DNA of 64,000 nt from Mytilus edulis (Eukaryota): the NCBI RefSeq assembly GCF_963676685.1, contig NC_092349.1:50778001-50842000 (forward strand), in the 5' to 3' direction. This document shows positions 17,806-48,955 of this stretch, in pieces (within the stretch, counting starts at the first letter, position 1; every line of letters begins with the position of its first letter). The position numbers were made by a program, and so were the translations under genes. A model generated the notes under the pieces. It did not search any database and was not told the origin of the DNA. It saw only the letters and a program-made list of their open reading frames with translations.

Positions 17806-18029
17806 AAATATTGAATTTGATGCGACTGTCATACAAGTGAGAAGTATAGCACTAAAAAAACAGGTTCAATTTACAATTTTCTACATAAGACAATGCCTGT
17901 ACCAAGTCAGGAATAAGATAGTTGTTGTCCATTCGTTTGAAGTGTTTTATCTTTTGATTTTGCCAGTTGATAAAGGACTTTCCGTTTTGGATTTTCCTCG
18001 GAGTTCAGTATTTTTGTAGTTTTACTTTT

Positions 18030-19430
18030 TAAAACGATAACGATCGTAGGGTGTAATAAAAGTAATAACATATTAAGACGGATCGTCAAGACTAATGGTC
18101 CAGTAACCTGATCGGACATCAGTTTTAGTAAAATAATGCGCCTTCGACAATTGAGTCAGAATATCCTCTACTGTTCGGATCGGATAGTGCGGACGCTGAG
18201 TCGCAGAGATCAAATATTTCGGGTCTATGCATAAACATCCGGTTTTTCGACAACGACGAGTAAATTAACCTAAGGTGTGGGGATGTCAACTTTACAAATT
18301 GTGTCTGCGTTCACCCTGTGATCTAATTCAGACTTTTAGCGACCACATAGCGCTACAGGAACGCGTCGCAGGGGTAGTACGTCTGGGAGGTACATTCGGA
18401 TCATTGTGTATTGTAGCTTCGCCTGAAAAAAGACCGACACCTTTGACAATATCTGAATGATCTTTTACCACTGACGACTTAGTCAGAAGAACATGTAGTT
18501 TCGGTACTGTAAACCAATTTTATCAACTCATAATCCAAGCAAGACTGCATGCCTAATATTGATGTGGAATTAGTATCTAGGCAGTAAAATATTAATTTTT
18601 TACTAAGTTTCTAGGCAGTAAAAATCTAATTTACTTTTAACAGAACCATGTTCACAAGGGACACAACAGACGCCGAATGAGGGCAGGGCATGCCATTATA
18701 AGCATTCAATAATGAAAGTAGTATGCTCATTTATACAATAAAGACAAAAATATCGGTCACTATTACCATCTGTGTCTGTCACTAATTCATCGACCCTTGG
18801 TTTGGATCTGCATACTTGCGAAAAATGATTCCATTTTTGGCAACTGTTGTACTTTTTTCCTTTCGCCAGACATTCTTCTCGTTTGCAGTGTCTTCTCCCA
18901 CAATTTCAACTTTCCATATCCTTGATGGGAAGATTAACGATGGGTTCGACTTTAACTCGATCTCTTTTGACTGGACCCGACCTAGTTTGGTCGGACGGCT
19001 GGCGGTTCTTCCTAGATTAGGCACTGTTATACTGTGGGTGTCACTTCGTGTACGACGCTAGACAATTAAATGTTTTATATCTTCTTCGGTTGTCCTTGAC
19101 TATACTCAAACGCCTGCGCGATCTGAAAAGCTTTTTTCAAATACCATTGCGTCACCTTCATTTAAGAGTTTCTCTTTCACTTTAGGCGAACTTGTCCCGA
19201 CAAAAAGATCATCTCGTTCATGTCCTTAAAATTACAGTCTTTAGCCATGAGCGTCAGTCGAGTAATAAACTGCTTAAGAGTGTCACTACTTTGTGTGTCA
19301 TGTCTGAATTTACACCTTGCAAGTAAAGAGTTCTGCTTTGGTTGGACATATTAGGCAAGACATTTGTCAAAATGGACAGAAAGGTTTTTTAGCATCGTCT
19401 TTTCTAGATTTGTTGAATGCAGTTCACATG
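18030..19430 (-). mobile_element. Gypsy (Mag-clade-like) gag, protease and RT N-terminal relic; same element as 10912-11825
   Basis: Gag-like QFITRL..AKDC and KVKEKLLNEG; decayed double knuckle NCGRRH...CLAKGK..SCQKWNHFSQVCRS; RT RVPVAL..LKSEL, LVVVEKP, LCIDP..RPHYP, SGYWTI..TPYDRYRF. Confidence 0.85.
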
Positions 19431-24600: not shown

Positions 24601-27600
24601 CTATTCTTACATGCATCACACAAAAAAGAGACCATTCAAATACGATTACATCCTGCATAACCAGACTTAGGAACCAGTCACATCAGAAAAATAACGTAAT
24701 GATTAAATCGATCTTTAACACGTACAGACTGAAGTAATGCACATGATACATAGAAAACCACTGACGCAACGATTTGACGTTTAATCCAATGTCTGATGAA
24801 AGTGTCATGTTATCTGCACAATAATGAAAATTTCGAACAACTGATATAGGAAGGTGTAGGTGACCTTTGATAACTTTTGTATACCTATTCAACATATATC
24901 ATTCATAAGTTCATATTTATTTCGCGCCAATCATCCCGATTGATCAATAATGCAAAAGTCCATAACTGATTAACTAATCTTATCTCGTCATGAACATGTA
25001 TTGAATAATTACACCCTTACATAAAGTAATTAATCAGTGTATCCTTCTAGTCGCATTTTATCAAAAACTTACCTTTGCAATTGTCTAAACCACGTAAATG
25101 ATGACGACTTATAATCGTGTAATTAAGAGGCCCAACCTCACAAAATACATCAACAAAGCCATTACAGTCAATGATCTGTTCTTGCAGGAGTGAATGTGAT
25201 ATGTTCACCTTATAAAATTCTGGTCTACTTTGTTTGATTTCATTGATTCTAACCGTATTTAAAACAATGGTATTACTCCTTGATGGTGTCTAAAATTGTA
25301 TAAATAAAACAGAGTTAAATAATCTATTTCTCTGCTGTGCTTTTAATAAAAATTCATTGTTATATTTCAGTGAATCATTTGTTTAATATAAATTTGACAA
25401 AATTATGCACGTCGTTTTAAGATTTCATTAAAGACACTGACAGCCTAGTTTAAGGATGTTTGCTTCTCTATTTTTCTAATTTTTGCCAGATTTTCGGAAT
25501 CCTCTGATTTTATCCATGTATTGCCATTAACAAATTTTGCCCACTAACCCCTATTTTTCTTTTCATAATTTTATTACATATTGCGTAAAACAAATTTCAA
25601 AATTTTATCAAATCCTTGTTATTTTTACATTGTTTTTGAAACAAAAAAAGTGCCAATGTTAAATATATGAAAAATCTAGAGAGAATTATTTCCTGCCAAA
25701 TTTTCATTTGCATATATCTTAAAAATAAGCATACGGATCCACATTTATTTTTGCTTTTTTAGTGTCTTTATTTATATACTATCAATTAATAACAGCCCTT
25801 TAAAAAGCTTGTTATTTTAAAACAGAGCAGCGAACATCCTTAACTCAAATATACTTGAAAATTATTGAAACATAGGAGTATGACCAGATGTTAAAACATG
25901 TTTGTACATATTACTCAATCTTTTAAGCCCTATCTTCAAATATGCTTTTATTTCATTTCATATTCAATAATTCCGAACATTTCCGTAAATGCACATAAAC
26001 TTGTCACTAAAGTTATTTGTCATTATCGATTTTGAAAAATAAAAAAAAAATATCACATTAAAGAATATATCACTTAGTCTACTAGTATTTGGTTTTTGGT
26101 GCCAGTCTTTCTGTTTTATTTTTGCATGTGCATGACATATTTGCTCCATATATAAACAAATCAACTAATCTGTTTGTAACTGCACGAAAGAAAACATATA
26201 TCTTCATCTTACATCTCGAAATTGACAATGAGGGTCGGTCGAAAACAAAACTTTACGACACAAGAAATGATCTCAGCTTTCTAATTGTGAACTTTCAATT
26301 TCTAAGTAGCAACTTTCCAGCAGCACCTGCATACGGGGTATATATCTCCGAATTGATACGACATTCCCGTGCTTGCATTTCCTATCATGATTTCCTTGAT
26401 AGAGGATTGCTGCTCACAAGGAAGCTATTAAACCAAGAGTTCCAAATGGTGAAGTTGAAATCATCTTTTCGTAATTTTTACGGACGCCATCACGAACTGG
26501 TTGACCGCTATGGAATAACCGTTTCACAAATGATATCGGATATGTTCCTTACGTCGTGACTACAACACCCTTCCCTTTCATGAATGTGACCTACCGAAAT
26601 AGACTATTTACCGGATTTGTTAATCACATAAGCAACGCGACGGGTGCCACATGTGGAGCAGGATCTGCTTACCCGTACGGAGCACATGAGATCACCCCTA
26701 GTTTTTGGTGGGATTCGTGTTGTTTATTCTTTAGTTTTCTATGTTGTGTCATGTGTACTATTGTTTGTCTGTTTGTCTTTTTCATTCATAACCATGGCGT
26801 TGTCAGTTTATTTTCGATTTATGTGCCAACATTGATCAATGATGCATATCATTTTGAAAACACTTTGAAAGGGTTTATACATTTTTATGCTTGCTATACG
26901 ACGGTAGATTATGGCAAGCGTGCATTTTTGAATATCCTTCCCGAAATAAAGATGTACAAATACTTTAAAAATCTTAACAATAAGGCGGATGATCGATATA
27001 CTTTTATTTTTGAAAGGTTAAAAAATTGATGTCAATAAAGTAAAATTGATTGCCAATTAAGCAACTCTCTACAAGAGACTAAATGATACAGGAAAAAAAA
27101 ATTAAAAAGACGACGTTAAAGACCAACAATACGATAATATTACTATAGTTCAACCTACAACCGTACGAAATGAGTAAAACCAATTTAGAATATGTCCAGA
27201 TTTGCAATACGGGAAAACTTTAAGCACTTTTCGGGTTTACATTTATCTATCATGGTCAAACGGGGAAAACAGTACATTTCACCTGTTTTGTTTTTTTAAG
27301 TTTCTATTATTTTGTTTTTCAATTGGGTGATTTTTTTTAGTATTATCCATTGTAAGTTATATCAGGTATCCATAAAACCATATTGGGCAAGTGAACAAGG
27401 TTGTTAAAATATTTCAACATTATGACATGTCATCGAAAAGTTCCTAAGTTTGCAAAACACATTTAGGTGTCTTATTAGGATGGTTGTTCAATGGTTTTTC
27501 TGTAAGAACAAATTCCATTAAAAATTAATTTGTACCTCCAGCCCTGAACAGTAAAGATTTATGTCTTTTGCAATTTTCCGAGACAGTCTGTTGTTCAGGT

Positions 27601-30600: not shown

Positions 30601-33600
30601 AGTACTATTTCTTTACTTTAAAACTATTGTAATATTTAGGTACTTGTATTTTACAGTACTTGATTTGTAATTAATATTTTGGTACAGAAATAATACAATA
30701 TTCCATGTTTGAAAATCATAACTTTAAGAGATTTAAAATATAAAAACTTTCAAAATGCTGAAAATGTAACGGTAGTAACCAAAAATCTGTAGTACCTAAA
30801 TTTCAAGTACTGTAAAATACAGGTACCTAAATATGACAATAATTTTAGAGTAACAAAATAATACTGAATATTAAAAGTAGATTTCCAGTACTATACATTT
30901 TTAGTACAGAAATAGTACCTATGCAAGTAGCTGTGTAGTTCATAAGGTATTCCCCCCTGGTGCCAGTCTTTCTGTTTTATTTTCTTATGTGCACGACAAA
31001 TTTGCTCCATCAATGAAAAAATCAACTAATCTTTTTTGTAACTGCACAAAAGGAAACATATATCTTCAATAACATTTTCAAACGACATAACATTGGTCAA
31101 TGATGCATTTAACTTTTAAAGACTTTGGAAGGGTTTTTACATGTTCATGCTTGCTATACGATAGGTTATAGCATGCGTGCATTTTTGAATATCCTTTCCG
31201 AAATAAAGATGTACAAATACCAAAGACTTTATAAATCTTAACAATACGGCAGCATGATCGATATACTTTCATTTTTGAAAGGTTAAAATTGATGACTATA
31301 AAGTAAAATTGATTGCCAATTACACAACTCTCTACAAGAGACTAACTGATATAGGAATTAAAAACTGTAGGTCACAATACGTCTGACAACAATGATTACA
31401 ATTCATATTCATAAGATTCATCAGCAAATAGAAACACGTGGTTAAAATGGCCTTAATTATTTTGGACAAAGAAACATCGTATAGATCAACCAATTTGTGA
31501 TGGTGTCCATAAAATGTACGGAGTGTCATTTTTAATATGTCCTCCACATAACCTTTTTGGAGCAGTTTCTGCGTACTGAACACACTCATGTATATGAAGT
31601 CCGTATAGTGTGAACAAGCCCGAGAATAACGTATCAACTGAGATATGTAAAACATCGTGTTTGGTATGAGAAGTTCAAAAAATGGGACAAAAATACGTAC
31701 TTAAATGTTTGTTAAAATACACAAAGAATAAAAAAAACTGACAATCTAAAATTAGGATCTACTTATTATAAATGTAATTTATTTAAAGAACATTCACTAA
31801 CGTAAGTAGATAGAACTGCTTCCAAGAATTGCATTAACTCATTTCACAATAGAAAAGAACAGATTGAAGCAAGGTATATCAACATACTGGAATCTCTCAT
31901 TAAATAATAATTTTCCTTGCAATGTAGGAAAGTGAGAGATTATCACCAGATAAGCATGTTGGAATTGCGTCCACAATAGTCACACTGAATAGAGCAAAAT
32001 TGCTAAGTTCAATAGTGATAACCTGAGAACTTTAAACTACCCACAATCCCAAAATTTTGGGCATCTGGTGACTCTTTTAAGAAATTTATATTGAAAATTT
32101 TAAGTTGCAAATTTCAGTCATCTGTACTATACTTCACATATATGATAATTACATGATATATCAAGGCACAAAAGATTATCATAATATTTCTGAAAGCCAC
32201 TTTCAAGACTCTGGGTTAATAAAAAACAATATGTTTTATCAATTAATACAGCATATATGTATATATAGTTTAGTTCTTTGTTTTCGAAATTATGCTTAAA
32301 TGGTTCACGATAAGCTGTTCAATGTACATGATCAACCTTTCGATATCAAACGGGGAAGATAACATGCTTCACGAGCATATAGTTCTAAGTATTTGTTCAA
32401 ATATCAGCTCGCTGTTTGTGCTCTTCTATATATAATATATATATTTTTTTTAATGAATATTCTTTCGACCTAATCGCTACGATATTAAAAATGCATGCCC
32501 AAAATGCACATAATTTAGTTATACTGATTGAGCAATGTCATCTTTAGGATTATGAATGGTTGAAAAGAAACGTTTGAACCGTCCAAGCTACATTTCCTTG
32601 ATGTGTCGGAAACTTTTCATAAGCACAGAATAAAAAACAGTTAAATCCCATGAAGAATATTCTGGCGGCTGAAAACGTAGTATCAGAGCCGTATACATCG
32701 ATAGCATAGGAAAAAGGGAGTGCAATCATTCCCTACGAAAGAATGTTACAGTATATTAAGAGGTGATTGAAGATTGTTCAATAAAAACCAAATTGCTAAA
32801 ACCATATAACATGTACAATGCGATACATGGCAATAAAATCTTAAATACTTTAATCTTAGATCGTATGTGGAGGAAGACAAGAAAAGGTTTATGCCCCATT
32901 TATGGGCATTATGTTATCTAGTCTGTGCATCCGTAGGTTTGTTCGTTCGTTGGTTCGTTCGTTCGTTCGTTCGTCCGTCCGTCTGTCCTGCTTCAGGTTT
33001 AAGTTTTTGGTCGAGGTAGTTTTTGATGAAGTCGAAGTCCAATCAACTCGAAACTTAGTAAATAAAGTGCCGTTGTGGCATCCGTGTCCTTACTTTTAAT
33101 ATACATGCAACTGGTATGACCTCTTAAATAGTAAACATTTTAAAGAAAACTGTAAACATAATACAGAGAGTCTCTATATATCAAAGTAGTGTAATCGTAG
33201 TTTACATGTAGATAAACGCGAAAAATAATCAGGTATAATAGTTGTGGTTCTAGCGATCCCAACACCATGATCTTGAGAACGCTTTGATTGGCTTATTTAT
33301 TTTTCATTTCATGAATCAGCCTTATCACACATATCTTCAAATATACTGTCTTTATGCAAATTGAAACGTAAGCTCCGCCCGATCAATTGAAAACACATTA
33401 TTAATACTTATTTAAAATTATAGTTTGTTTAAAGGCATTCACAATAAATTAATGTGTCACGAACCTAGCAGGATTAGGCATTGTAAACTTGTGTTTAATT
33501 ACCTTTACCGGTTCCTTCTCTAATCTATTGTACCCTTTACCTAAGAACTGTAATGTCTTGTATTTGAACGCTTTATCGATAACCGTGACCTTCTGGAAAT

Positions 33601-38932: not shown

Positions 38933-41728
38933 CCTACAATATATGAAATATAATATAACACGGACAAATAATACCAGTAATATATTTGCCAATTCCCGTA
39001 ATTATGGTAAAGGATCACGACACTGTATTTAGAGATCCATTTTTAGTTGTGTCCTTTGTGAGGGACATTAATTTTCATTTAAAATGAATAGCTAGTAGGA
39101 AGTAAAAAAAACATTTGCAGCATTTGAGTAATCTCAAGTTTTTCAAATCTTTTAATTACAAATGTATATTAATTTGTTGTTGAGGTAAATACTTTTGACA
39201 TCAGAAATCATTATTCATTAAAATTAGCTAAATCGCCATGCAACAAGTCACTTTCAATTCCTCATGATTTGCATTGACAAAAGCCAATTGTGTCAAGTAT
39301 AGAACCAGCCTACGATTGACAAAGGGAAGTAATTTGTTTACAAAATATGTAATAACTGAATCAAATCGGTAATTGACAAATGGACTATTGAAACTACAAC
39401 ATATTGTTTAAAAAAATGTGTTTTTTATTTTGATAAAAGATACCTATCAAGTAATTTGTGCTATTTTAGTGTTGTCAAATCGTTTAATTTTGCCTTACCA
39501 GTTACTCGGATAATCGATCGACCGATTAACCGGTTAGCCGATAGTTTTAGTTGATCTTTGAATGCCTTATATAAGTACCCTACACATAGATATAAGAAGA
39601 TGTGGTATGAGTGTGAAAACCTTCCATCTAAGTCATACATTTACGTTTTTGTAATACGATGAATTGAAGTTTGTCATTTGGTGTAATACGGCTTGTCTGA
39701 AGATTCCTGACGAAGTTTGGCTTTAAATAATCAAATACACGTCCATATCAATTACGGCGTTTGTATTAACTTCTTGATCTTGGAGAATTTAATATGTCTG
39801 AAAACAATGCTTCTTTCATTTTCTCTTGTTGTCTCCAAAAATAACGTGGAGTGTTTCAATTTGAAATGATTAAGCCTGTTACTCGTACTATCAAGTATAC
39901 ATTGATTACATTCACATTGGTTTGCATTGCACAATGTTTTAGTAAGCATTTCGTTTAAAGTATGACAAAGCCTTACACGACGGAGATTGCAAATTCCTAT
40001 CTAGATTTACACAATATTAGAACAAAAATGAAACAATAAAGTAAATAGTAAAATTTAATTTTATATTTTTGGATTAACAATAGCAATCAATATACTGAAC
40101 AATTGATCTGCCAAATTAATTTACACGATGACAATTTAAAAGAAAACATAACTTTTTAATGATTTCAATACAAATTTATATTAAATCTATCAAAATTGAA
40201 AAAAAGTCCGGTTAACCGGTTAGCTGTTTTGGTATTCGGTCCGGTAAACCGTTGACAACGTACACTACTTATTTAAAAAAAAAAGCGTTGTTTTCCTCAA
40301 AAGCAGGATAACTTTTGCTAAAAAAGTAACAGAAGAAAAACAATATACTTCGGCTTCTAAGGATAAATTCTCTGATTTAAGTTCGTGCATTGCTGAATGA
40401 AGTCATTATTTATCTTTTTTGGTTACCAATTTGTTCTTTACGTAATTTGCAAGTTTCGGATATATATATTTTTGAGTTATTGATGCGACTCCGCTGAAAG
40501 GATTATAAAGACTAATATACCAAAACGATAGTTAATATACAATTATGACCTGCTGAGTAGGTAAACATCCGAATGGTCGACCCGAGTAAGAGTTATTTCA
40601 CGAGGGCTTTAGGGTTTTGGATATGCACAGACTCAATAAGCCATAGTTGTTTTATTTTACCGAACGAACATACAAATTATTACTATTAAAAGTAAATATT
40701 GTTACTGATTGTCAAAACACTTACATAAGACAACTATTTTGTGTTTGTTAACATTTTACGTATGTATAACAAAGGTAGACCTTTTTTTCAAAAATATAGT
40801 TGGCCCTGAAAAGGCCGTCTACAAGAGGTTTCGTCGATGAATTGTGAAGTCTTGTATGGTCTTGTTCTGTCGTCACTTGATGGACTTCTAACATGACCGT
40901 TGCCATAATTATTTTTTCTGTCGTTTAGTTACATTATACTTTAAAGGGAGTCAACTCTTGATCATTAAGTACGACAAGGATTATTTCCCAGTGAATAATA
41001 GAATTGTTTGATAGAGGCCTCAATTTGTCTTTGTTATTTACCCGGGAACAATAGGGTTGTTCATTTTGTCAGTGTTATTTATCGCTGCTGCCAATTTTTG
41101 GAAGAAACATCGAAACGAAACTATGGCACGTGATTCCGTATTAGCCAAGCACGTATGTAAAATATAATGTGAGGTTTTAAAATATATTTTATTCAATAAG
41201 AACCTCACCAAGTAGTGACGAAAAACAACGAAAAGACAATACACAATCTTAATCACTTTATACAAAATCAATATGAACCCAACAAAAAACCCGACTTTAT
41301 ATCTATGTATTGTTGGAGGGTACTACTTGCACATTTCGTGTTGCTCATTTCACACACCAGGTGCATGATGTAGATTTTGTTTTGTTTTAACGACACTTTT
41401 AAGTACCGCATTGAGGCTATTTTGTGGCGGCCAGTTTTTATTGTTGGAGAAAGCTGCATGATGTAGAACAAGAACTGCCTGCACTACTGGAGCACTTGAT
41501 ATCACCTTTGAGTTTGCGGTTCTTGTTTTCTAAGTCTTTAGATTTCTATGTTGTATTTACTGTTCTTTGTCTTTTCGTCTTTTAGTTTTTTTTTGTAATA
41601 TTGTTGTTAGTTTATTTTCGACTTATATATATACAATATTAGGTAAATGTTAGAAATTATAAACTTTTTTGTATGCACCTGAGAAACTGGGGAAGGGCGA
41701 GGTTGTACCGAGCCATTCCCCAGTGTTG

Positions 41729-44078
41729 TGTGACAGTGGAAAAAGCAGCTTCGTTTATTATTTTGGACTTTAATACAAAATTCTCAATTGTTATATTTTA
41801 GACTTTAATTCTCTGTGTTTTATAATTCATTTTATTTTATAATTTCGTTTCTATTTACATTTCGTATCCAGGACTTAAAATCAACATGCTTTTTAATTCT
41901 TAGTTTGGACATTGAGTGACATGTTTCAATCTGTTACCTAATTAGTGACATTTTATCTTATTCATAATGTATGTTCTTAATTGTCATAATCAGATTATCA
42001 TTTAATATCTATTCTTCAAGTTCTAAAAATAGTTTAATCTTTGTCAGTGAACAATATCACTCAAATTAATTGTTATTTGTTATGTCCATACTTGTTAATT
42101 CAATTGTGTATAAATACTTGTTTATAATTTCTATAAGCAAGATTTGGACTCAGGACTTTACACTGAACACAGTCCATCTGTAATAAAAGTATTCGTATTC
42201 CATGCTGAATTATTTGTTTATTCATCGCTAGTTCCAGAGTCTCAGAAGTTAGTTTTCACCAGAGTTTCAGTCTCAGAGTTCTCATTGCTATTCACAGCAA
42301 TCGTTCGTTGTGTGATCAGGTGCATCACACAGTTTCAGTAACAAGAGGCCATTCAGTCAGGCTCTTGTTGCACACCCGACAAGTCACCCAGTTTCCCCGG
42401 TGACATTTTGGTGGACGACGACGGCGTGCTGACTTCTATGCTCAGCACACGATCCAGAGACCTCAAGCAGCCAAGCGAGTTCCCAGACAAGTAGCGTAGG
42501 CAATATTCAGCGATGGAGTACAGCTTTCGACCACAATGGAGACCATGGAACATCCAGTCAGGTGACAGTCCAGCATGTGGGAGATGCGGTAAATTTCATA
42601 AACATTATATTGTAACTCGATCAATCAAAGATGTTATTCGTGTGGAAAATTCGGACATTATTCCACTAAGTGTTTTTCAAAAGCAGCTAAGGACATAAAA
42701 CGTACAACAGTTCATGTGAAATCAAGAAAGCAAAAGCAGCGCGATTCAGCTAGGATAGACAGCTATATTGAACGCAAAAACATCATCCGAGCTTTACCGT
42801 TCTCAGGTATGAGAAATTCAGCGTTCGTGCAATATTTGGACATTGCAAATGTGCTCAAAACAGAACTAAAAAGTGTGAAGCAGAAAATTTCAAAGGAAAG
42901 GAATACAAATCTAGAACAGCAAAAGTGCATCGAGGCACTCAAAATTCAATTAAAGAACCAGCAAACCATCGAATCAGAGAGAGACCAGTTCAAGCAAGAA
43001 CTCGAAAACCTTCGTCAACAGAAAGAAGAAAGTGCTTCGCGTATAAACGTACAGGAATATGTGAATCAAATTCAAGAATTACAGGAGCAATTAATTGAAA
43101 AAGACGGGACTGTTAAAATGGTACAAGATCTTTACTTTATGCGTTCAACCGAATTTACAGACGAAATACAAACATTGAAAAATGAAAAATCAGACCTTCA
43201 TTCCAAACTTCAATCTCAAGAAAATTCTGTCAAACAGCTGACAGAAGAACTGCAAAGCCTTCGGCATGAAAACTACTTGTTGTCTTCAAGTCAAAATCAA
43301 CAGCGACCCAACTATAACAACAGACACTATAACAACCGCAGAGGCGGCCGATTTAGATAGTGCTAAGTCCGAGGACGGACTTAATTGGGAGGAGAGGCAT
43401 ATGTGACAGTGGAAAAAGCAGCTTCGTTTATTATTTTGGACTTTAATACAAAATTCTCAATTGTTATATTTTAGACTTTAATTCTCTGTGTTTTATAATT
43501 CATTTTATTTTATAATTTCGTTTCTATTTACATTTCGTATCCAGGACTTAAAATCAACATGCTTTTTAATTCTTAGTTTGGACATTGAGTGACATGTTTC
43601 AATCTGTTACCTAATTAGTGACATTTTATCTTATTCATAATGTATGTTCTTAATTGTCATAATCAGATTATCATTTAATATCTATTCTTCAAGTTCTAAA
43701 AATAGTTTAATCTTTGTCAGTGAACAATATCACTCAAATTAATTGTTATTTGTTATGTCCATACTTGTTAATTCAATTGTGTATAAATACTTGTTTATAA
43801 TTTCTATAAGCAAGATTTGGACTCAGGACTTTACACTGAACACAGTCCATCTGTAATAAAAGTATTCGTATTCCATGCTGAATTATTTGTTTATTCATCG
43901 CTAGTTCCAGAGTCTCAGAAGTTAGTTTTCACCAGAGTTTCAGTCTCAGAGTTCTCATTGCTATTCACAGCAATCGTTCGTTGTGTGATCAGGTGCATCA
44001 CACAGTTTCAGTAACAAGAGGCCATTCAGTCAGGCTCTTGTTGCACACCCGACAAGTCACCCAGTTTCCCCGGTGACA
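41729..44078 (+). mobile_element. Non-autonomous LTR retroelement without pol, 2350 bp, very young
   Basis: 677-bp LTRs (41729-42405, 43402-44078), TG...CA, no differences seen by eye. 4-bp TSD GTTG. PBS-like TGGTGGACGACG 3 nt after the 5' LTR. Polypurine tract GGGAGGAGAGG just before the 3' LTR. Confidence 0.95.
42513..43360 (+). CDS. Internal ORF of the LTR element: tandem zinc knuckles, long coiled coil and N/R/G-rich tail (~282 aa), one frameshift near 42600-42610
   Basis: CGRCGKFHKH in frame 0 joins YCNSINQRCYSCGKFGHYSTKC in the -1 frame, which stays open through the 214-aa E/Q/K-rich ORF ending YNNRRGGRFR*. Confidence 0.75.
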
Positions 44079-46589
44079 GTTGTGCCGAATACAAAAAAGG
44101 TTTATATTTTTATGACATTAAACTAATACTGTTTTTATAATGCAACTTAAAATAATTTATTGATAACTTTTTAAATCGTAACATAAATTAATCCCTTAAT
44201 AAGTCCCTAGTTGTGGCGAAAGTGTTCCATGATGAAATTGACATTACACAAAATATAGCTGTGTTACTAAATTTAGGAAATAAAAACAACTAGTTGCAGT
44301 TAAAACGAAGAAATCCTCAAAATGAATCATTTTGATTATTTGTAACTATAGGATGTATAGTTCGAATGATAATGCAACTTTCTAGACTGACGTTATGGAT
44401 TTCAATTATAATCTATGTATTCCTGCTAAACTATTAAGGTTTATGACCCCTTCTGTAGCCATTTTTATAAGAAATTTTCAAACTTCAATTGTATCAAAAC
44501 TACAGATATAATGAATAATAGAGACAAGTCATTTTGTACATTTACCGAGGGGAAACTTGATGCAAAGCATTATAATTGACTGTTTCATTGAAATCAATAG
44601 AAAAAGAGTACTTAGTGGCAAATAAACCAAGATTTTTATAGAAAATCCACAGCCTTTATTACAGAGATTTTTGTTCTAAAATTTGAAACATATATTACTC
44701 ACTTGCTTTTCTATGATGTGCTAGTGTTTATTTTTTACAACAATTTCTAAACATCCTTTAGATTCCAAAATACCTCGTGCTGAGTAACTAAAGTCGAACG
44801 CACCCTAAAGGTGTACTTGATTTGGCTATATTTTTTATTAGTTTTAACCAATACTTACATAAATAAACTTGTTTTAATGAGATCAATGCTAGCACTGCAT
44901 GCAGCAATACTACATCTATCAGTCGTCAAATCGCCAAATACGAGAAAACAAGGATAAAGACTGTGGATTTTCTTTAAAATTTCCATATGTTTAGCATTGA
45001 ATCAACACAAGGGTATATAATCCTTAAGGTTCCGCTAAGGTAAAAATTTCAATCTGGTGGTGCAATTATCAAATGTACATGTTTTGTACCTTCAACAAAT
45101 TACTGAGGGGTGAAATGTTTTCAAATTTTGGAATTTTTACCATTATTTGTGTTAACATACAGGGCTTGTATCAAACCTTAAAATTCACTACACTATTCCA
45201 ATGTTTAAAGTTGAAAATGCATCTTCACAACACACATTTTTTCAAAAAACAGAACATTCTTACATCAGTGTTATATCACCCAAAATTGGCACCGAGTATT
45301 CTTTATATTTCAATGCAGGTCGAGCTATACCTTCAACTTGCTAAAAGACATCTGTCTTTCTATTAAGTTAAGAATAAAAGAGTGTCTCACGCTGTTGGAT
45401 AGCCGCCATTATTACAATGTTGTTGCATGATTGAATTTTTACTATTTACAGTTGTTTAATTTGCTTGATCTCCCTTGACACTTTATGACTTGCAAATTCA
45501 TTTGTGTATGAGAATATTTAGCTGTAATTTAAAAACATATTTTACCATTTACACAGTAAAATAAACTGTTGAATTGGATGTTCTGTGATCCTTCTGAAAA
45601 CGAAAGTAGAAGTTCATGATCTGATATCACACCGCACTTTCGAATATAACAAAAATAGCATTTTTTTTAAATTGAATGATTGTTTTGATAATTTTCATTA
45701 TATATTTCAGGTCAATTAAGTTTTTGGACATTAAACAATCGATTTAATCATTAAATTCTAATGCGAAAGAAATAACTATATGAGAGAACTCACGTCCGGT
45801 TTGAAGAAGTACGGTTGATCTTTTGATCAAGTGAGTAAACATTGGGAAAATATCACTTTATTTGGTAAGGAATTGATCCTATATATTCAAATATTTGTTT
45901 AGTAAATATATATCGCTAAAAAGCAATCATCAGATGTCACAGTTAAGTCCTTAACGGGAAAATAAATACAATGTAGACCAAACAGACATGTTTACACATG
46001 TTTCATTTTGGTGAGTTTGTATTACTTTTAAATTAAATATTATTAAAATTATGGAAATTAGAATGGTTAAAATATGGGTAAGAAACACATTGCAACCTAG
46101 GTAAGTGAAAATAAAATTATATTTAAAAATGTTAAAAAAACGTGTATGGAAAGCAAGGTTGACAAAAGGAAGCCATTACATGTTTTGACAATATCAAAGA
46201 AGAATTTATTATGGGCAGTAAAAGTAAAAAGAACAGTGTTTGGTAGAAGTTTGGGTAGGCATAGCAGAGTAAGGAGAGGGAGGTATTTAGAATTAAAAAA
46301 AGTCTAGAAACATCAAAAAAGACATTTTGAAGATAAAGATAAAGGAAATACATAATTTCTATGGCACTACTTTGAAAAAAAAACCAGATGTCAGTCATCT
46401 CTATTTATACCGCATTTTCCTATGGTGATAACTTCAGAATGAGTATACGCAAAGTTAAAGACCTTATTCCAAAAGGATACAGAATGATGAACTAAGACTG
46501 TTTGCAATCACATGTTTCGGAAATAACAATGCATGTATGTTTATGTGTAGAGGCAATGAAGATTTCGTCTGAAAGAAAAACTATCAAGC

Positions 46590-48955
46590 TACAGACAGAG
46601 GTGAGAACTTAAGGTTTAGCAAGTGTGATGATGGCAGAGTTCCAAGGGAATTTCAAGAAATTTAAATTTCATACGAGTCCCAAGGTCCCTTGTTCAAAAC
46701 TTTACGACATCAATGTGCGTGCCGTATGGGGTAGTATGGTCACTGGCAATGGCCCATCACATTTGAATGAACTAATGGCCACAATGAATTCACCTGGTTT
46801 GTCTCAACCAACTTTTACATCAATTGAAACTGACATTGATGTTGAGCACTCTATATTGGGACGAGATATGAAGCTAGCAGGTCAAGAAGAAAGACGTTTG
46901 GCAATTGAAATGAATGATTACTATCATGAGGTTCCTGCTATTACAGTAATAGTAGATGGAGGTTGGTCAAAGAGGACTCATAAGCATACATATAATGCTG
47001 CAGGTGGGGTTGCTATTATAATTGGGAAAGAAACTAAGAAACTGCTACACATAGGTGTTCTGAATAAATACTGCTATATTTGCTGTCAGAATGACAATAA
47101 ACCCAACACATGCTTTAAGAATTGGGACAAAGATAGCCAGTCCATGGAAAGTGACATTATTTAGTAAGGGTTTAAACAGGCAGAAGAAAAACATGGTTTG
47201 CGGTACATAAGAGTGGTAGATGATGTGGACTCTTCAGTTGTTGCAACTATCAGGGATGGTGTGCCAGGATGGGGAAGACAGGTAACTAAGGAGGAATGCG
47301 CCAACCATATTATGTAAATGTTATCGTTCCAACTTGGAAAAGATGGTTACTGAAAACCCACTGTACAAAGGGAGACACCATTTGTCTAAAACAATGCGAG
47401 TGCGTCTGGTTAGTGCATAACGATGTGCCATCCGCTTTAGGTAAAACGAACTAAAAGAACAAACAGTAGATGTATCAATTGCAATTAAACGACTTCGCCA
47501 TGACATCATAAATTCGGTCAATCATAATTTTTGTCAACATGATCACTGTTCTGACTTCTGCCGCGCTAAAACCCAACAAAAAGATACATCACCTGATATT
47601 CATACATGTACCTCGTCAAATTCTGATCATTAAACAACATCTTCACCCACCATAATAGAAAACTCTGATGATCCAGATCGTTTAGATAGTCAGATAGATT
47701 TCTGGTCAGAAGGATCGTCCAAGTCCAGACTTGGTATAACCATACAGTACAGTAATGTAGAACAACATATAATTAAGGATGTCTTGCTTAACAGAATAGC
47801 TGAGAAATCTGACCGCCTTATCAGCAACATAACAACTAACCTGGCAGAGAGTTGGATGCACATCCGAACCAAATTTGATGGAGGAAAGGTTTTTAACCTT
47901 TGTAACCGTGGGTCATGGCATGCAAGATGCTATGGAGAAGCTCTTCGTATGAATTTAGGTCCACAGTGGTCATGTCAGGCTTGGGAAATTTGTACAGCGA
48001 CAGAACCAGGAAAACATTTTACAGCTAGGTACAAACGTAACGAACAGATGCTAAAAAGTCAAAGCCAGATGTCAAACAAAAAAGGTGGAAACAGAAAATC
48101 TCATCTCTGAAAGGCTGCACTACAAGGAAAGCTAGACAATCGTATGGTACAGATGTTATTGAGGTTAGTACTGATTTATCTACCACAGAGCTTGCAAAAC
48201 TTCAGAATGTTTTTTTGGATACACACATCAACTTTTCGGCAGATCAATGTAAACAAATTACACTATCAACATTTCAACAGTGTCAATCTGGTCTTTGGCA
48301 TTCTGAACGTCATAAAAGAATAACTGCTTTAAACGTTGGCTCTATCATTAGACGAAACCCATCTTTACCAATAAATAAATTTGTCCGTAATTTGCTGTAC
48401 TCCCAATTTAAAGGAAATAGGCATACAAGAAATGGCATTCTACAAGAAGATACCACCATAGAGGAATATAAGCTTAAGAAAGCAGAAGATAATGAGAATA
48501 TCTGTGTGAATAAAACCGGTCTTGTTATTCACCCAACCAACAAATGTTTAGCTGCTTGTCCAGACGGGATTGTTACACCATCAACTGACGGCACTGGACT
48601 TATTGAAATAAAAAACCTTTTGCATTCAAAACCAATCAACCTTTTTGAAGCTGGTAATTCAAACAATTTCTGCCTGATAACTGTCAATGGAAATTTGAAG
48701 TTGAAGGAAAATCACCCTTATTTTTTCCAATGCCATGGCCTTCTGAATGTGTGTCACAAACCATGGATAGACTTTGTTGTGCGTACACTGAATCCATATC
48801 AGATGTTCATACAGAGAATTTGTCGAGATGTTTGTCTGGGAGGAACAAAACTCTATTACCAAAACTCAAAGCTTTCTTCACTAAGGCACTTTTACCTGAA
48901 CTTGCCTCACCACGAAAAGAAAAGAGCCAAGGCATTCGTAAACCTGGAATATGGG
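46590..48955 (+). pseudogene. Kolobok-type DDE transposase fused to a YqaJ/lambda-exonuclease domain, disrupted
   Basis: DINVRAVW, ITVIVDGGWSKR..YNA.GGVAIIIG..T.K.L..NKYCYIC, CFKNW..S.SME, KHGLRY, KEECANH, TNLAESWM; then W..ER.KRITA, GLVIHP..LAA.PDG, LIEIK, HPYFFQ.HG.L, WIDFVV. Several stops and frameshifts. Element ends not resolved. Confidence 0.85.

Follow-up and report, generated by a model that had tools for sequence, protein, structure and literature searches.

A stretch of 64,000 nucleotides of Mytilus edulis DNA (here called the window) holds, at positions 41,729 to 44,078, a recently inserted copy of an LTR retrotransposon family that has neither pol nor capsid, and this family belongs to a bivalve superfamily of pol-less LTR elements of about 2 kb. 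The same genome contains young Gypsy elements of the converse constitution, which begin at the protease and leave no room for gag. On balance, we are inclined to view the two as a split Gypsy system, in which the small element would give a nucleocapsid in trans and borrow the reverse transcriptase (RT) and integrase of the pol-only clade.

Anatomy of the window element

The LTR pair of the window element is identical over its whole length (677/677, 0 mismatches), and identity stops exactly at the LTR ends, with not one base further in common. The LTRs enclose a 996-bp interior, giving a total of 2.35 kb, with a single open reading frame (ORF) and no RT. The features, all on the forward strand, are as follows.

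41725..41728, +, left target site duplication (TSD) GTTG, 4 bp
41729..42405, +, 5' LTR, TGTGACA...GGTGACA, 677 bp, 0 mismatches against the 3' LTR
42409..42426, +, degenerate primer-binding site (PBS), probably of tRNA-Ala type, 13/18 to the recurrent 18-mer described below
42467..42480, +, conserved leader motif GCAGCCAAGCGAGT, a candidate packaging signal or splice-donor/U1 site
42513..43360, +, single gene, ATG at 42513 to TAG at 43360, frameshifted near 42600-42612 in the window copy
42576..42673, +, tandem zinc knuckles, homologous to Gypsy nucleocapsid (hhalign probability 98.3, E = 1.5e-14), dN/dS 0.07
42725..42802, +, superfamily-specific basic helix plus RD..R....K......LPF motif, conserved in 83 sequences, from sequence and structure model
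42842..43294, +, predicted coiled coil of ~150 aa (helices 111-177 and 180-261), dN/dS 0.22-0.26
43295..43357, +, disordered basic tail rich in N/R/Y, ending in RRGGRFR, from sequence and structure model
43387..43397, +, polypurine tract (PPT) GGGAGGAGAGG
43402..44078, +, 3' LTR, 677 bp, identical to the 5' LTR
44079..44082, +, right TSD GTTG, 4 bp

The element thus has what defines a non-autonomous LTR retrotransposon, namely a TG..CA LTR pair, a PBS (here degenerate), a PPT, a TSD and many dispersed young copies. A reading of this DNA made from the sequence alone had described identical 677-bp LTRs, an intact TSD, a PPT and a 996-bp interior with one gene, all of which were confirmed. It had also called the PBS intact, which does not hold, as the site offers 7 contiguous nucleotides complementary to the tRNA-Ala genes found. 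The gene of the window copy changes frame inside the first knuckle, at about 42600-42612, and the protein would therefore come from sister copies. The spacer between the LTR and the PBS (42406-42408) reads TTT in the window copy and GAT at 21 of 24 junctions, with single-base variants at two. No Rfam match at E ≤ 0.1 was found over the element.

Elsewhere in the window, three open stretches of 158-305 aa lie on the plus strand at 46613-48955, which may encode the transposase of a DNA transposon and, after it, a YqaJ-like nuclease. Fragments at 26086-26556 (+) and 31335-31700 (-), also seen in other loci, resemble a common retroelement in its C-terminal RT region.

The window family is multicopy, recombining and under purifying selection

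The interior was searched in the 1.37-Gb genome, giving 38 matches, from which 30 loci were fetched. Two full LTRs were found in 19 of these, and among the 19 full-length copies 17 carry an intact ORF of 281-288 aa and 13 a perfect 4-bp TSD, in agreement with the multicopy satellite family that the sequence-only reading had proposed. Their LTR pairs differ at 0-38 sites, with four copies showing no difference. The proteins closest to the window ORF carry the name Mytilus. When exact LTR-PBS junctions were located in the genome, all of them (24/24) coincided with the short interior of this family and none with an autonomous parent sharing the same LTR; nor was such a parent found beside nine further LTR places, all of which are solo or truncated LTRs.

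Pooled pairwise comparison of the 17 intact ORFs gave a dN/dS of 0.21 (codon bootstrap 0.16-0.26; the pairs are not independent), so the family is neither single copy nor neutrally evolving. Selection is purifying in every domain, with dN/dS of 0.07 for residues 1-56, 0.14 for the helix/LPF region, 0.22-0.26 for the coiled coil and 0.67 for the linker, and no region exceeds 1. Silent sites of the ORF differ by 33% (pS 0.33), compared to 4% for the LTRs (0.043). Four-gamete incompatibility of the interiors was 0.145 within 100 nt compared to 0.286 in permuted data (p = 0.001), and the window copy itself is a mosaic, with one segment 99% like L005/L006 and the next 99% like L007/L010. These recombinant interiors and the mosaic window copy suggest frequent template switching between co-packaged copies.

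Tandem LTR-interior-LTR-interior-LTR arrays were seen at L007/L020, L023/L024, L078 and L089, in three small-element families. In addition, the Mytilus gene models P0014, P0028, P0030, P0031 and P0211 contain parts of the small-element ORF fused to host domains (e.g., peripherin-like, STAND NTPase, EGF), either as annotation artefacts or by exonisation.

The small protein combines Gag-like knuckles with an unrelated remainder

The protein of an intact natural copy was modelled with a pLDDT of 76.7 and a pTM of 0.27, the coiled-coil helices lying mostly above pLDDT 90. In the model, the knuckles are followed by a helix at 72-92, long helices at 111-177 and 180-261 and a disordered tail, with only ~55 residues separating the knuckles from the long helices. 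Residues 111-261 are thereby predicted to provide ~150 aa of helix, in line with the coiled coil noticed earlier. The tail had been described as RGG-like; it has one RGG within a basic, N/R/Y-rich stretch and no RGG box.

The Pfam families found in the small protein are the knuckle and a generic coiled coil, and no capsid family occurs in 83 superfamily members among the best 25 of 73 Pfam families. Profile-profile comparison with ten gags of the local lineage likewise aligned only 48 nucleocapsid columns, with the probability and E value listed above. The earlier description of N-terminal tandem knuckles without a capsid is upheld on both counts. Residues after 59 aligned to no gag or pol tested, the coiled coil being colinear with none of the gags, and the basic helix/LPF motif is absent from every autonomous element tested. 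Within the 83 superfamily sequences, the second knuckle and the downstream RD..R/LPF motif are nearly invariant; R77 and R81 are fully invariant, and D78, P96 and F97 are conserved in at least 90%. Fold searches gave no Foldseek match at E ≤ 0.001, only generic coiled coils in VIA (Z ≤ 7.8) and nothing at ≥ 0.8 in Atlas, and no CA-binding feature is evident in the protein. Altogether, the comparisons indicate that the knuckles are Gag-derived, while the remainder of the small protein appears not to be.

Small pol-less elements form a bivalve superfamily

A protein search of the genome gave 123 matches, of which 40 distant loci were fetched. A close LTR pair around an interior of 980-1303 nt was present in 26 of these 40; a 4-bp TSD flanks 19 of the 26, none contains an RT (0/26), and their similarity to gag is confined to the knuckle region. 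These distant elements make up about eight to ten families, whose LTRs differ. A profile search of protein clusters recovered 293 at E ≤ 1e-10; among the best 150 of these, 11 are longer than 400 aa and match via repeated knuckles only. Three of 25 clusters checked carry names, which are Mytilus galloprovincialis, Pinctada imbricata (five 300-aa copies) and Argopecten irradians. Longer fused forms of 659-2000 aa were represented by 21 matches; apart from a fusion in a Mytilus gene model and a gag-pol that resembles the small protein via the knuckles only, these are generic coiled coils. Lengths of 495-658 aa were covered by the profile search that gave the 293 clusters and by that search only.

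A Gypsy clade without gag is present in the same genome

An integrase search of the genome gave 2117 candidates, of which the best 150 were scored and 40 loci were fetched; 11 of the 40 are pol-only elements. Their ORF begins 20-55 residues before the protease motif and lacks a gag domain, and their leaders of 244-722 nt contain stop-free stretches of at most 49 aa (1366 nt and 66 aa in one mis-bounded locus). No gag was detected in these elements by tblastn. Their LTR pairs are 99.5-100% identical, and a clean 4-bp TSD was scored by script in 6 of the 11 loci. A search with the pol N-terminus added to this picture, yielding 28 loci, six of them already among the integrase-derived set. The LTR-PBS junction lies 459-722 nt upstream of the ATG in 23 of these 28, and gag was found upstream of pol in none of them (0/28) compared to both control loci (2/2).

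In the tree, the pol-only rows are monophyletic with support of 100/99, or 96/97 when one ENA and one JGI protein were added and one row with a short RT was dropped; both added proteins start as the pol-only ORFs do. Next to the clade lie L175, a complete family, and L186/L208/L212, which has capsid and lacks the knuckle. The C-terminal extension of the pol-only clade was modelled as three chromo-like modules, for which support is weak and Foldseek gave no match at E ≤ 0.001. Loss of gag is old and clade-wide, and it is accompanied by a conserved new N-terminus and by the putative extra chromo-like modules.

Several further observations concern the L187 family and its kin. Residues 1-52 of L187, L183, P0233, P0234 and P0238 form a conserved basic two-cysteine peptide ahead of the protease, a candidate docking peptide that belongs to one pol-only subclade. 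Internally deleted derivatives of the L187 family, ~2.3 kb in length (L264, L265, L268, L269, L272 and L273), retain the leader and the first 80-107 codons. Copies of this family (L255-L273) differ in their PBS, the variants centring on one recurrent 18-mer, as though the primer restored an imperfect genomic PBS time after time and new divergence followed.

Termini, primer sites and chimeras link small and pol-only elements

Terminal sequences were scored against 12 reference junction pairs. Of 11 small elements, 9 scored highest against a pol-only family, a count that is weaker than it appears because five of the 12 references are pol-only, three of those five are close kin, and the references were drawn from 60 loci of the 2117 integrase candidates. 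Termini of the window family scored 9.5 and 8.6 against pol-only elements, compared to 4.4 and 4.3 against two complete families. One small family, L092, best matches a complete element, L175. Long LTR homology between the small and pol-only groups was not found.

One exact 18-nt PBS occurs at three pol-only loci, two small elements, one chimera and the gag-bearing L253. In the search for an exact primer tRNA gene, two sequence patterns matched no tRNA, and a third, among 100 of its 220 matches listed, recovered tRNA-Ala(TGC/CGC) arrays that match the recurrent 18-mer at 14/18 positions. We infer that the 18-mer is the tRNA-templated form of the PBS and that the tRNA is probably an alanine isoacceptor. 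A helper search with the Ala-PBS pattern gave 266 matches compared to 155 for the control, with an autonomous element in 0 of 20 loci fetched. The leader motif GCAGCCAAGCGAGT is present in 8 of 11 small-element leaders and in the gag-bearing L175, L176, L186 and L212, and in none of 11 pol-only leaders.

Loci L001-L102 were screened for chimeras against four pol-only and three gag-bearing references. Three matches were obtained, at L071, L074 and L076, all to pol-only elements; between these 102 loci and the three gag-bearing references, no chimera was seen. At L071, a small element has inserted into a pol-only gene. In L074, the 3' LTR of a small element switches at nt 370 to pol-only LTR sequence (99.7%), and a single GTAC duplication surrounds the whole chimera. 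L076 opens with a pol-only 5' LTR of ~920 nt (segments at 86-97%) that reaches the exact 18-mer; a small-element leader, ORF and 3' LTR (94.7%) follow. In retroviruses, plus-strand transfer is an established mechanism, and a transfer that joined two different templates within one complex would be expected to give a product structured like L076. Integration of L076 as one unit is likely but uncertain, because the first ~120 nt of its 5' LTR are unlike the pol-only LTRs sampled and the sequence common to its two flanks is 6 nt long instead of 4. In L071 as in L074, the L072 family meets L177, which is also the best terminal match of that family; the L076 and L074 chimeras belong to sister families, and none involves the window family. 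The two integrated chimeras point, indirectly, to shared reverse-transcription complexes.

RNA reads were few and came from three runs of one study, ~6% of each run. The small-element stretch attracted 108-144 reads, many of them on a flanking repeat; reads over the small ORF were one-sided in two runs, with strand uncalibrated, and the pol-only interior had 38-113 reads on both strands. No splice joints were found in these raw reads.

Complete relatives and the question of a Mag origin

Complete gag-pol elements with capsid and tandem knuckle, young and intact, occur in the same genome (L175/L176 and L236/L237), and they carry primer sites similar to those of the small/pol-only lineage. The partner lineage has C-terminal chromodomains and includes relatives with two ORFs and env. 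A young Gypsy family with capsid and pol and without a canonical zinc knuckle (L186/L208/L212) was also observed; the L088 small family finds its best terminal match here, and L186/L208/L212 may be an intermediate in the outsourcing of nucleocapsid. A capsid-only third segment was not found among 20 loci chosen from 85 + 28 capsid matches; these 20 contained a complete element with an internal deletion and two loci with gag but no RT. At G000:C11, ~45.0-45.4 Mb and 51-53 Mb (L238), clusters of capsid-like open frames lack RT and have no LTR pair close by, and represent either a decayed array or domesticated gag.

The sequence-only reading had assigned the knuckles to Mag-clade Gypsy gag; the tandem knuckle pattern, a mark of the Mag lineage, is present in the element. 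The knuckle pair scored 42.6 bits against the L236/L237 gag of the chromodomain lineage, the best local gag match and one reaching into the basic linker, compared to 41.7 bits over the knuckles only for a Mag-like gag-pol (P0222, which we presume to be Mag-like). Because these two score level, the knuckles alone fix no Mag origin. The RTs of the best terminal matches lie far from the Mag-like RT row in the tree, and termini and primer site point to a non-Mag lineage, so a Mag origin is not supported. A Gypsy element near 18.8 kb had been cited as having the same arrangement. The remnant at 18025-19356, on the minus strand, does carry a decayed, broken tandem knuckle along with an RT fragment; its match to Mag-like gag is weak (E 0.003), and the knuckle pair scores 19.5 bits against it, well below L236/L237 and Mag-like gag.

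A proposed split system and its rivals

In the split system that we favor, the small protein would oligomerise through its predicted coiled coil, and its knuckles would bind and anneal RNA and tRNA, doing the nucleocapsid job in trans. Both RNAs would enter one ribonucleoprotein, the RT and integrase of the partner would copy and insert both, and each side would depend on the other, with capsid either borrowed from complete relatives or dispensed with. As such a bipartite system demands, an active, complementary pol-only partner exists in the same genome; that two RNAs or cDNAs share a replication complex is indicated indirectly, by two chimeric integrants in sister families. Copying of the small elements by the pol-only clade is the step that we hold to be probable. 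That they repay the clade with a needed nucleocapsid function is a somewhat better than even prospect, and that no capsid is used is doubtful. In that capsid-free form, one RNA would encode protease-RT-RNase H-integrase plus three chromo-like modules and the other an ORF1p-like nucleocapsid/coiled-coil protein. The result, a two-segment LTR retrotransposon running as a ribonucleoprotein without Gag shell or complete helper across pteriomorph bivalves, is put forward only tentatively.

The main rival, to which we give a substantial chance though one short of even, is that small and pol-only elements independently parasitise complete gag-pol elements belonging to the same lineage. The small protein would then be a selfish adaptor tying its own RNA to the helper particle, pol-only elements would borrow helper Gag as BARE-2 does, and chimeras would arise since both groups ride in the helper capsid. 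Because the complete relatives are young, have similar primer sites and include L253 with the exact 18-nt PBS, both groups could indeed be passengers. The parasite reading also accounts for the knuckle and basic linker being closest to L236 gag, and for a leader motif common to small elements and L175/L212 and missing from pol-only leaders. It fits less well with termini that are closer to pol-only families in 9 of 11 small elements, with two chimeras with pol-only elements against none with gag-bearing references, with the old, clade-wide loss of gag alongside a new conserved N-terminus and extra chromo-like modules, and with a small protein in which no CA-binding feature is evident. The sequence-only reading had envisaged a protein that hijacks or dominantly inhibits helper Gag packaging; as the best-matching partners lack any gag, supplying Gag function in trans fits better, with parasitism remaining the principal competitor.

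Inhibition taken by itself seems improbable to us; Gypsy assembly would then be poisoned by the protein, acting as a trans-dominant inhibitor or as a restriction factor favoured by the host, and the element would be a defective-interfering replicon. A capsid-less architecture modelled as prone to oligomerise would suit such a role, and the excess of ORF pS over LTR diversity could reflect balancing selection. However, the copies are dispersed, young and flanked by TSDs rather than fixed host loci, selection is purifying throughout with no region above 1, and a protein blocking the machinery that its own element needs would presumably be hard to keep across Mytilus, Pinctada and Argopecten. Least probable is a recent internal-deletion derivative of one autonomous element, a TR-GAG or LARD-like decay product with a neutral ORF remnant. 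Internally deleted pol-only derivatives of ~2.3 kb do occur in the genome and the window copy is frameshifted, but this explanation is refuted by an LTR-PBS junction common to no autonomous element, by the dN/dS of the ORF, by residues after 59 that are colinear with no gag or pol tested and by hundreds of divergent clusters of the same architecture.

Discussion

The described non-autonomous LTR elements considered here (TRIM, LARD, TR-GAG, BARE-2 and BHIKHARI) need, or are presumed to need, a complete element. If the split system is true, two defective lineages complement each other and form a segmented retrotransposon. If, in addition, capsid is unused, reverse transcription and integration of the LTR type do not require a Gag shell, a result that would bear on the origin and loss of virus-like particles. 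Even under the parasite reading, a large class of coding elements emerges that RT-based and capsid-HMM surveys would miss, and whose members databases annotate as host "CCHC-type" genes. Chimeras at the PBS junction, moreover, allow elements that share a particle to be recognised from the genome.

Coiled-coil oligomers with nucleic-acid-binding modules that chaperone retroelement RNA without a capsid are known from LINE ORF1 proteins. The resemblance of the small protein is at most an analogy of working, with no homology implied, and the window element differs in having LTRs, a PBS, a PPT and TSDs of the integrase type.

No bivalve Gypsy system that is knuckle/coiled-coil-only or gag-less was found described in the open literature searched, which included PMC12440569 and PMC13570524; individual members may be listed in Repbase, in subscription journals or in the supplements of PMC6238403, PMC10294476 and PMC13524379. 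Bivalve non-autonomous LTR elements are represented in that literature by TRIMs of under ~1 kb that are non-coding, namely Helenus (PMC10886601) and biv-TRIM (PMC6934838); Helenus, an animal TRIM, has 4-bp TSDs and is thought to be mobilised by Gypsy (PMC10886601). The window element, in contrast, measures 2.35 kb and has a coding ORF with a dN/dS of 0.21.

The TR-GAG elements of plants are closer in plan, being short (<4 kb) and still active, with PBS, PPT and one ORF and without pol (Chaparro et al. 2015, PMC4350172). The window element resembles them in its length of 2.35 kb, its single ORF and its lack of RT. TR-GAGs are, however, defined by an ORF encoding a GAG capsid (Retrotrans_gag/UBN2; PMC4350172), whereas the window element lacks capsid, has N-terminal knuckles followed by a novel motif and a predicted coiled coil, and resides in an animal. 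Among animals, BHIKHARI of zebrafish (Bik-1/Bik-2) and ENS-1/ERNI are young gag-only LTR elements that take pol in trans (PMC12067270). A coiled coil, a basic or glycine-rich tail and the need for pol in trans are common to these and the window element. Bik Gag, a lokiretrovirus protein, nevertheless has a full capsid domain and an N-terminal coiled coil (PMC12067270), while the window protein has knuckles and then coiled coil, no capsid, and ties to a Gypsy lineage.

On the pol side, the partner lineage, with its C-terminal chromodomains and env-bearing two-ORF relatives, resembles by description the chromodomain-bearing "ancient errantivirus" clade of Cnidaria, Mollusca and Annelida, whose members were selected as gag-pol-env (PMC13524379); gag-less or knuckle-only members are not described in the accessible text of that paper. 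The nearest precedent for the pol-only clade is BARE-2 of barley, an active, gag-deficient element served with Gag in trans by its complete sibling BARE-1 (via PMC4350172). Both need Gag function in trans, but the pol-only clade differs from BARE-2 in comprising several deep families without gag sequence, and in having its best terminal matches and its chimeras with another non-autonomous group.
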